Source: Escherichia phage ECO95 1-6-1. From it: a stretch of DNA of 1,621 nucleotides. The stretch is taken from the sequence record OR845787.1; one strand, given 5' to 3'. Every line of letters starts with the position of its first letter. The first letter of the stretch is position 1. Below are positions 594 to 868 of the stretch, piece by piece. A program made the translations under genes and the position numbers. The notes below the pieces were generated by a model that was not told the DNA's origin, did not search any database, and saw only the letters and a list, made by a program, of their open reading frames with translations.

Positions 594-868
594 AAAAATT
601 TCTCGTTTCCATCGCGTTTTATTTTCAAAAAAATCACCGTGCGTAAAAATTTGAGGGGGCGGGCGGTGCCTGGCGCCTTGAGGTTTGTCCTGAAAACCTC
701 CCCCACCCCGTCCATGCGGCCTGTCAGCGATTGCGGAAGCATTCCCGCAACTCCCGGTCACGCTCGGTCATACGCTGCGCAGGCTGGCGCTCATTGCATC
801 TGCTTCGCCCCCGCATGAAGCCATCACGGCAGCGCATCAACGATCGGTACAGATTCACCACGTCTTTC
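594..868. other. 275-bp non-coding region between HNH and terS; candidate cos (cohesive-end packaging) region
   Basis: No convincing ORF in any frame; ORFs 551..742(-) and 731..1009(+) are out of context and low-complexity. Contains a G-rich tract (653-666), a 7-bp-stem hairpin (680-700), a C-rich tract (697-710), an A/T-rich tract (594-650) and short inverted and direct repeats (731-770). In HK97-like phages the cos site lies between the HNH gene and terS. The functional assignment is by position only. Confidence 0.4.
680..700. repeat. Perfect 7-bp inverted repeat (GAGGTTT / AAACCTC) around a 7-nt loop
   Basis: Read directly from the sequence: 680-686 gaggttt, loop 687-693 gtcctga, 694-700 aaacctc. 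Flanked by G-rich sequence on the left (ttgagggggcgggcgg, 651-666) and C-rich sequence on the right (cctcccccaccccg, 697-710). Not followed by a T/U run on either strand. Confidence 0.7.

Follow-up and report, generated by a model that had tools for sequence, protein, structure and literature searches.

The GC-rich element at positions 650-710 of a 1,621-nucleotide stretch of DNA from Escherichia phage ECO95 1-6-1 (sequence record OR845787.1; hereafter the window, whose numbering is used for all coordinates) is very probably a cos (cohesive-end) site, where the DNA of a satellite is recognised and cut for packaging; the satellite would be a capsid-forming phage-inducible chromosomal island (cf-PICI) of the kind represented by EcCIGN02175 and KpCIDSM30104. 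The assignment draws on the position of the site in the non-coding gap that leads from the HNH endonuclease side to terS, upstream of the genes for the small and large terminase subunits (terS-terL); on its homology to mapped cohesive ends; on conservation beyond neutral expectation, which places its blocks under selection; and on a break at the site in the assembly of a packaged relative. Read this way, the element is an ordinary cos site of the SfV/ST64B class with HK97-like mechanics, carried by a known class of satellite, and does not represent a novel type.

All genes in the window lie on the minus strand, and the subsites are listed here in gene direction. An original prediction, made from the letters of the window, had described a perfect 7-bp inverted repeat framed by a G-rich and a C-rich flank, with the hexamer TTGAGG occurring twice, and each of these features is present where it was placed. 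The arms of the repeat (GAGGTTT at 680-686 and AAACCTC at 694-700) are separated by a 7-nt spacer, TTGAGG is found at 651-656 and 678-683, and on the plus strand the G-rich run GGGGGCGGGCGG occupies 655-666 and the C-rich run CCCCCACCCC 700-709. The C-rich right flank and the G-rich left flank are referred to below by their minus-strand sequences, as the G-box and the C-box, respectively. The string GGGGNGGG is present exactly twice in the window, on opposite strands (656-663, plus; 702-709, minus), a count reached by 5 of 200 shuffles, and on the minus strand the C-rich box is followed by runs of five and seven T residues (T5, 645-649; T7, 627-633). The gap that holds the element is 130 bp long. 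While the interval 650-710 contains the predicted cut, it misses the most conserved part of the site (618-652), and the functional region is better placed at about 618-709.

Homology to mapped cohesive ends

A tblastn search with the window TerS retrieved cos phages whose P27-family TerS proteins are about 40% identical to it, including SfV, SfI, SfII, SfIV, ST64B and EPP-1. Several of these phage records begin just upstream of terS and carry the HNH gene at the opposite end of the record in each case, and once circularised their junctions share one layout: the HNH stop codon, a G-box, about 30 nt, AC(C/T)GCCCGCC(C/T)C, an A/T-tract and terS. On the minus strand, the block ACCGCCCGCCCC|CTCAAATTTTTA shows homology to the ST64B, SfV and SfI cos sites. 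When ACCGCCCGCCCCCTCAAATTTTTA is compared with ST64B, 22 of 24 nt are identical, a score matched by none of 1000 shuffles; for the comparison with SfV, 4 of 1000 shuffles were as good.

For SfI, the ends of the virion DNA have been sequenced by run-off and compared with the prophage, giving a 10-nt cohesive end, TGCCCGCCCC (PMC3636060). These are the last 10 nt of the SfI record, and they align column for column with window positions 656-665. Two further termini were brought into the comparison: those of EPP-1, whose assembly is stated by its authors to be PhageTerm-corrected (PMC11043334) and whose record ends in ...ACTGCCCGCCTC and starts with CCCCAATTTTTAT..., and those of HK97, whose record ends in ...ACCGCCGCCAAA and starts with GTTTGAATTT... 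and which has a 10-nt 3' overhang and a minimal TerS site at +15..+29 that ends in an A/T-tract (PMC11331095). An alignment of ten cos junctions (alignment A3, including SfI, ST64B, EPP-1, Psymv2 and HK97) is nearly gap-free from the G-box to the cut, has the G-run at the same spacing upstream of the cut in all ten junctions, and places the record boundaries of SfI, EPP-1 and HK97 all between columns 59 and 60, which corresponds to the position between 656 and 655 in the window. By homology, we predict that the minus strand is nicked between 656 and 655 and the other strand between 666 and 665.

These alignments support the earlier guess that the element is a protein-recognition or cleavage site: positions 656-665 coincide with the 10-nt end mapped in SfI as well as with the EPP-1 and HK97 termini, and the assembly of a packaged relative breaks around them (see below). 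The related suggestion that the left flank loosely recalls the cohesive ends of lambda and P2-type phages stands in part: the flank does align with the mapped end of SfI, but it bears no specific resemblance to lambda, and its relatives are of the SfV/ST64B/HK97 type. The lambda cosN sequence GGGCGGCGACCT has no match with up to 3 mismatches inside 594-723, and the three matches that occur outside this interval are expected by chance; a lambda-type cohesive end was rejected for this reason. Scanning IMG/VR with TCAAATTTTTACGCACGG gave 111 stretches, listed without contig coordinates and mostly well within their loci, and these were therefore left out as evidence on contig ends.

A packaged relative and its island

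Among deposited phage records, close matches to the element were limited to two, vB_KppS-Ant (hereafter Ant; 16.5 kb, with the same gene content) and P12620-1. Ant was assembled with SPAdes from a Nextera XT library of lysate DNA, the lysate having been grown on K. pneumoniae DSM 30104 (PMC8006926). When its contig ends are compared with the integrated island of K. pneumoniae ATCC 13883, they are 100% identical over 2,400 and 2,800 nt. We regard ATCC 13883 and DSM 30104 as one type strain. The Ant assembly is without exactly 69 bp at the junction, GAACACGAGGGCGCCAGGCACCACCCGCCCCCTCAAATTTTTTCGCACGGTGATTTTTTTGAAAATAAA, and the C-box lies inside this gap, with 20 nt on one side of it and 37 nt on the other. 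Because one contig end retains the G-box, the cut lies downstream of the G-box. The contig is of unit length with both of its ends bordering the single 69-bp gap, and the loss of a few tens of bases per end would fit tagmentation of a linear molecule. On this reading, the ends of the packaged DNA fall at the element in this close relative, at 69-bp resolution. Strain DSM30104 carries a single cf-PICI, KpCIDSM30104, whose packaged DNA forms concatemers via cohesive cos ends (He et al.) and which is packaged into small capsids (cf-PICI papers).

The Ant record itself (LR881103.1, 'Escherichia phage vB_KppS-Ant'; our locus L004) was published as a filamentous single-stranded DNA induced prophage of a novel genus. 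It is 100% identical to KpCIDSM30104, and both its organism name and the label 'tail length tape measure protein' on the gene at 2036-4333 look wrong. Klebsiella phage P12620-1 was considered as a second virion-derived end and set aside as uninformative, the record appearing to be chimeric, with unrelated DNA joined at terS codon 2. In this 106.5-kb 'complete genome' (PQ569648.1; loci L001 and L282), pieces of the island are found at 90644-90961 and 105611-106501, probably as the result of an assembly chimera.

Several points weigh against assigning the element to a cos site, or limit how finely its parts can be placed. The gap in Ant places the ends only within 69 bp and assumes that tagmentation depletes end reads, and a drop in coverage over a GC-rich or homopolymer-rich stretch could also break an assembly. 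In the window element, both the position of the nicks and the polarity of the overhang are predicted from homology. The DNA similarity to HK97 is not significant by itself (350 of 1000 shuffles), and the HK97 TerS has neither BLASTP similarity to the window TerS nor a match to PF05119. On account of both of these observations, the placement of a TerS site at 627-641, the putative counterpart of the HK97 minimal site, is an analogy only. Finally, the cos assignment attaches no role to the G-box or to the GACAA motif that follows it. HK97 was dropped as a sequence homologue and kept as an architectural analogue: it supports the architecture and the mechanism, not membership. Psymv2 and ST101-KPC2phi6.3, which combine a P27-family TerS with HK97-like ACCGCC(G/T)CC boxes, bridge the two groups. 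A search of the PDB detected no relative of the window TerS.

The genes around the element point to the kind of DNA that carries it. The window itself shows the connector, HNH, terS and terL genes only. The region 560-760 is found in 18 complete E. coli genomes at 80-98.5% identity, and the closest copy (98.5%), in KCJ3K291, belongs to an island that spans about 16 kb and is flanked by yhdJ and fis. The order of genes in this island is int, regulators, primase, major capsid, protease, portal, head closure, connector, HNH, a small open reading frame (ORF), the element, terS and terL, and it has no tail genes and no lysis genes. A gene layout of this kind defines the cf-PICIs of Proteobacteria (cf-PICI papers), and it is present both in the 98.5% E. 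coli copy and in the 16.5-kb vB_KppS-Ant/KpCIDSM30104. The island has its own HK97-like packaging module, consisting of HNH, TerS and TerL.

Further observations concern this module and its relatives. In the KCJ3K291 island (L005, 11574-11882 and flanks), a DUF3892 gene follows terL and a variable region separates the genes for primase and capsid; it has been suggested that immune systems are encoded in the variable regions on either side of the packaging module (He et al.). The 50-aa ORF next to the element shares 8 nt with the end of the HNH gene, and a different sequence occupies this position in Xenorhabdus-type islands. Within the 5' coding part of terL there is a perfect 8-bp inverted repeat, CGGCCTGT/ACAGGCCG (178-185 and 197-204, 11-nt spacer), which is longer than the hairpin of the element. 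Many Xenorhabdus genomes carry the island family in multiple copies (for example, X. innexi at 6 loci, X. khoisanae at 5 and X. kozodoii at 4; L025-L085 cover Xenorhabdus and Photorhabdus), and several contigs break off 25-45 nt upstream of terS, which is probably due to the collapse of repeats.

Conserved blocks, the hairpin and other explanations

To assess selection on the element, relatives with a TerS 70-100% identical to that of the window were collected from 80 genomes that each represent a species of Enterobacterales, Aeromonas, Pasteurellaceae or Orbaceae, and from 80 IMG/VR contigs. The 84 distinct regions upstream of terS were aligned (alignment A1), identity was scored to the window, and the third-codon positions of terS served as the yardstick. 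Among the 84 sequences, 18 columns are invariant. In the group whose TerS is 78-86% identical, the third-codon positions of terS are 52% identical; the G-box, the A.GACAAA motif, the C-box and the block at 618-652 lie far above this value (Table 1), indicating that the flanks, and with them the larger block at 618-652, are under selection and the hairpin arms are not. Within the G-box, 700-703 are invariant, and identity is 87-99% across all divergence bins. In the GACAAA motif, 685 and 688 are invariant, 686, 687, 689 and 691 are conserved in at least 94% of sequences, and the block as a whole stays at 80-93% across all bins. Invariant positions are also found in the C-box (654, 665 and 667) and in the block next to terS (646-649 and 629-633). 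The original prediction would have been undermined by loss of the element among relatives that keep the flanking genes, or by ends mapped elsewhere; instead, the flanks are conserved among the relatives and the predicted ends fall inside 650-710.

The spacer at 671-683 behaves differently from the near-invariant blocks on either side of it. It is represented by 65 alleles in the 84 sequences, and even where TerS is more than 98% identical its identity is 59%, compared with 84% at terS third-codon positions. This may be the result of a mutation or recombination hotspot beside a DNA end, or of diversifying selection. In one island of Xenorhabdus hominickii (L059), about 100 nt upstream of terS, the G-box has grown to a tandem array of five GGGGTA units just before GACAA, which could form a G-quadruplex.

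Table 1. Coordinates of the genes and subsites in the window; identities were scored to the window sequence among relatives whose TerS is 78-86% identical.
Feature	Position	Strand	Identity	Basis or remark
gp6-like head-tail connector	1611-1312	-		PF05135
HNH endonuclease gene	869..1345	-		PF01844; RefSeq copy has a later start, 147 aa
ORF, 50 aa	724..876	-		Hypothetical in RefSeq and in the Ant record; no Pfam match
Intergenic region, 50-aa ORF to terS	594..723	-		ORF map, RefSeq annotation of the 98.5% copy, alignment A1
Probable cos region proper	about 618-709	-		Alignment A1
G-box GGGGTGGGGG (plus-strand C-rich right flank)	700..709	-	94%	Near-invariant subsite, about 45 bp upstream of the predicted cut
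Inverted-repeat arm AAACCTC (plus strand)	694..700	.		Lineage-specific; not a conserved feature
Hairpin arm segment, as scored	692-699		7%	
A.GACAAA motif (hairpin loop and part of one arm)	684..691	-	87%	Kept as sequence, not structure; GACAA is 685-689
Inverted-repeat arm GAGGTTT (plus strand)	680..686	.		680-683 variable; 684-686 part of the GACAAA motif
Hypervariable spacer, including second TTGAGG (678-683)	671..683	-	21%	Block identities, allele count
C-box GGCACCGCCCGCCCCCTC (plus-strand G-rich left flank), probable cleavage box, cosN equivalent	653..670	-	74%	Conservation and homology
Predicted 10-nt cohesive end, CGCCCGCCCC (minus strand), GGGGCGGGCG (plus strand)	656..665	-		Homology
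Most conserved block AAATTTTTACGCACGGTGATTTTTTTGAAAATAAA, from cut to terS; probable TerS-binding or bending side (cosB equivalent)	618..652	-	88%	Conservation, analogy to HK97
Putative counterpart of HK97 +15..+29, CACGGTGATTTTTTT	627-641	-		Analogy only
terS, P27-family small terminase, 118 aa	237..593	-		PF05119, E = 3e-25
terL, 5' part	1..251	-		Open frame that overlaps the terS end and continues beyond the window; annotated terminase large subunit in the E. coli copy

The central hairpin, which the original prediction had put forward as a feature, does not share in this conservation. When the pairing of the window is imposed on A1, only 47% of cells pair and 499 of 500 shuffles do equally well; covariation is absent, its score falling short of the mean for the shuffles. 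The longest perfect stem around GACAA in each sequence is 2-6 bp, in a shifting register, and is 3 bp in the packaged KpCIDSM30104; no hidden alternative dyad was found in the variable segment of the 84 sequences. The suggested fold check on 650-710 was unremarkable (z = -1.3 on the plus strand and -0.65 on the minus strand), as was that on 630-730 (z about 0). On the strength of the pair counts, the stem search in each sequence and the fold z-scores, we reject a hairpin or cruciform as the functional unit. The TTGAGG direct repeat is likewise dropped as a feature, its second copy lying within the hypervariable spacer and not being conserved. Columns 18-26 of alignment A3 show (A/G)TCAAATC or TAAATC right after the G-box in SfI, ST64B, EPP-1, ST101-KPC2phi6.3 and HK97; this motif is partly kept in Xenorhabdus islands (L034, ATCAAAAAT), while the window lineage has AGGTTTTCAGG instead. 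The 7-bp hairpin arose because AGGTTTTCAGG replaced the phage-type motif after the G-box in this lineage, and it is an incidental, lineage-specific accident between conserved subsites.

The complementarity of the two conserved boxes lends itself to an explanation at the level of RNA, in which a stem of G-box and C-box together with the T-runs would act as a terminator or attenuator in the hnh-terS transcript and tune terS-terL. RNAalifold on the 84-sequence alignment does pair the G-box with the C-box, the fold of the minus strand has the same outer stem, and T5 and T7 runs come after the C-box on the coding strand. However, no terminator-like site was found on either strand between 500 and 900, in keeping with the earlier view that the element is unlikely to be an intrinsic terminator, no T-run following the hairpin on either strand. 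The two boxes are 32 nt apart, with variable and mostly unpaired sequence between them, and a single pair has changed on both sides, which is not beyond expectation; the missing covariation signal is due to the near-invariance of both boxes. The fold z-score is about 0 and Rfam has no family at the element, the sole Rfam match in the window being a chance snoRNA at 1512-1571 (E = 0.29). Moreover, the C-box is a physical DNA end in relatives, and in HK97 the G-run is present while the complementary cut box is absent. Taken together, these results make a role as RNA structure very unlikely.

We also regard as highly improbable that the element is a regulator-binding site or a promoter for terS-terL that has nothing to do with cleavage. 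No sigma-70-like promoter was found, and the genes make up a single operon in one orientation, their ORFs overlapping or nearly adjoining, even though a conserved A/T-rich block with TTGAAA does lie immediately upstream of terS. The homologous block starts at the mature DNA end in SfI, EPP-1 and HK97, and the Ant assembly breaks at the element, both of which also speak against a regulator site.

Since the element adjoins terS, as many pac sites do, it could in principle initiate headful packaging, with an imprecise cut, terminal redundancy and no cohesive ends. Such a mechanism is at odds with the homology to mapped cohesive ends, with the cohesive-end concatemers in KpCIDSM30104 DNA and with the unit-length Ant contig, whose two ends flank one 69-bp gap; HNH-associated P27/HK97-type terminases are, in addition, cos enzymes. 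A pac-type site is therefore extremely unlikely. That the whole element is a functionless, GC-rich inverted repeat is hardly credible: this reading is refuted for the flanking blocks, which are conserved far above synonymous sites across Enterobacterales, Aeromonas, Pasteurellaceae and Orbaceae, and it still holds for the hairpin itself, which does not exceed chance: the 1.6-kb window has nine inverted repeats that reach 7 bp or more within 60 nt, this one among them, and its fold energy is ordinary.

Proposed packaging scheme and comparison with known systems

A cos site of a self-packaging satellite is thus the reading that we adopt, and the order of its subsites in gene direction (the G-box at 709-700, GACAA at 689-685, a spacer free to vary at 683-671, the cleavage box at 670-653, the A/T-tract block at 652-618 and then terS) suggests how it may work. 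By analogy with characterised cos systems, after excision and replication of the island TerS would bind the A/T-tract side (618-652), and TerL, aided by the HNH protein, would place staggered nicks at both edges of CGCCCGCCCC (665-656). The product would be 10-nt cohesive ends, probably 3'-protruding as in HK97. Packaging would then run from the cut through terS-terL and round the island of about 16 kb to the next cos site, where the same cut would terminate it, leaving the G-box and GACAA at the end that is packaged last. The G-box could have a cosQ-like role or be contacted by HNH or TerL.

A more specific proposal, which we put forward tentatively and with more doubt than confidence, is that the G-box and GACAA, at fixed distances of about 45 and about 30 bp upstream of the cut, together form a cos subsite of HNH-dependent terminases that has so far gone undescribed, and that specificity is determined by the hypervariable spacer. 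The candidate subsite might be a docking site for the HNH protein or a cosQ-like termination signal, and the spacer might act as an incompatibility determinant that bars cross-packaging among co-resident satellites and helpers.

The cf-PICIs are recently recognised, very widespread, self-packaging elements that borrow only tails. In the cf-PICI papers that we consulted, cos packaging is stated and the site itself is not given; here it is predicted at the nucleotide level. A prediction at this level makes packaging specificity directly testable, provides a precise marker with which to annotate islands and orient virome contigs, and lets minimal packageable cargos be designed.

The closest parallels to the element are the Shigella, Salmonella and Edwardsiella phages SfI, SfV, SfII, SfIV, ST64B and EPP-1, which have the same order of HNH, cos, terS and terL; an HNH-cos-terS arrangement is common to SfV, SfI, ST64B, HK97, Pmp8 and D14E. 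The SfV-type phages share with the window the spacing of G-box, about 30 nt, AC(C/T)GCCCGCC(C/T)C and A/T-tract, as well as a TerS of the same Pfam family that is about 40% identical. They differ from it in several respects. The SfV-type phages are 37-40 kb in size, whereas the satellite that hosts the element measures about 16 kb. From the G-box to the cut, the window has GACAA where these phages have TCAAATC...GTGAC, and downstream of the T-tract it has ACGCACGG..T7GAAAATAAA where they have ATACCCGCGAAAAATGAAAT. The end of SfI has been mapped, while that of the window is placed by homology.

The likeness to HK97 is one of architecture. In both, cos lies between the HNH gene and terS, a G-run precedes the cut by about 45 bp, an ACCGCC box extends up to the cut and an A/T-tract follows about 23-30 bp downstream; the two align without gaps, with the mature end in the same column. 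Cleavage in HK97 is stimulated by its HNH protein, gp74, and the HK97 overhang has a different sequence, CGCCGCCAAA. With lambda, the element shares the three-part logic of cosQ-cosN-cosB, in which a GC-rich nicking site stands between an upstream element and a side for TerS binding that adjoins the small-terminase gene. Lambda, however, has no HNH partner, a TerS of another family (Nu1) and a 5' overhang of 12 nt, and its cosB relies on IHF and R sites.

Among satellites, P4, the cos-type Staphylococcus aureus pathogenicity islands (SaPIs; for example, SaPIbov5) and the Rpp-type E. coli PICIs likewise carry a cos site and package unit-length islands. While these satellites copy the cos site of their helper or retarget the helper terminase, a cf-PICI encodes its own TerS, TerL and HNH proteins (cf-PICI papers), and for this reason its cos site matches its own enzymes.

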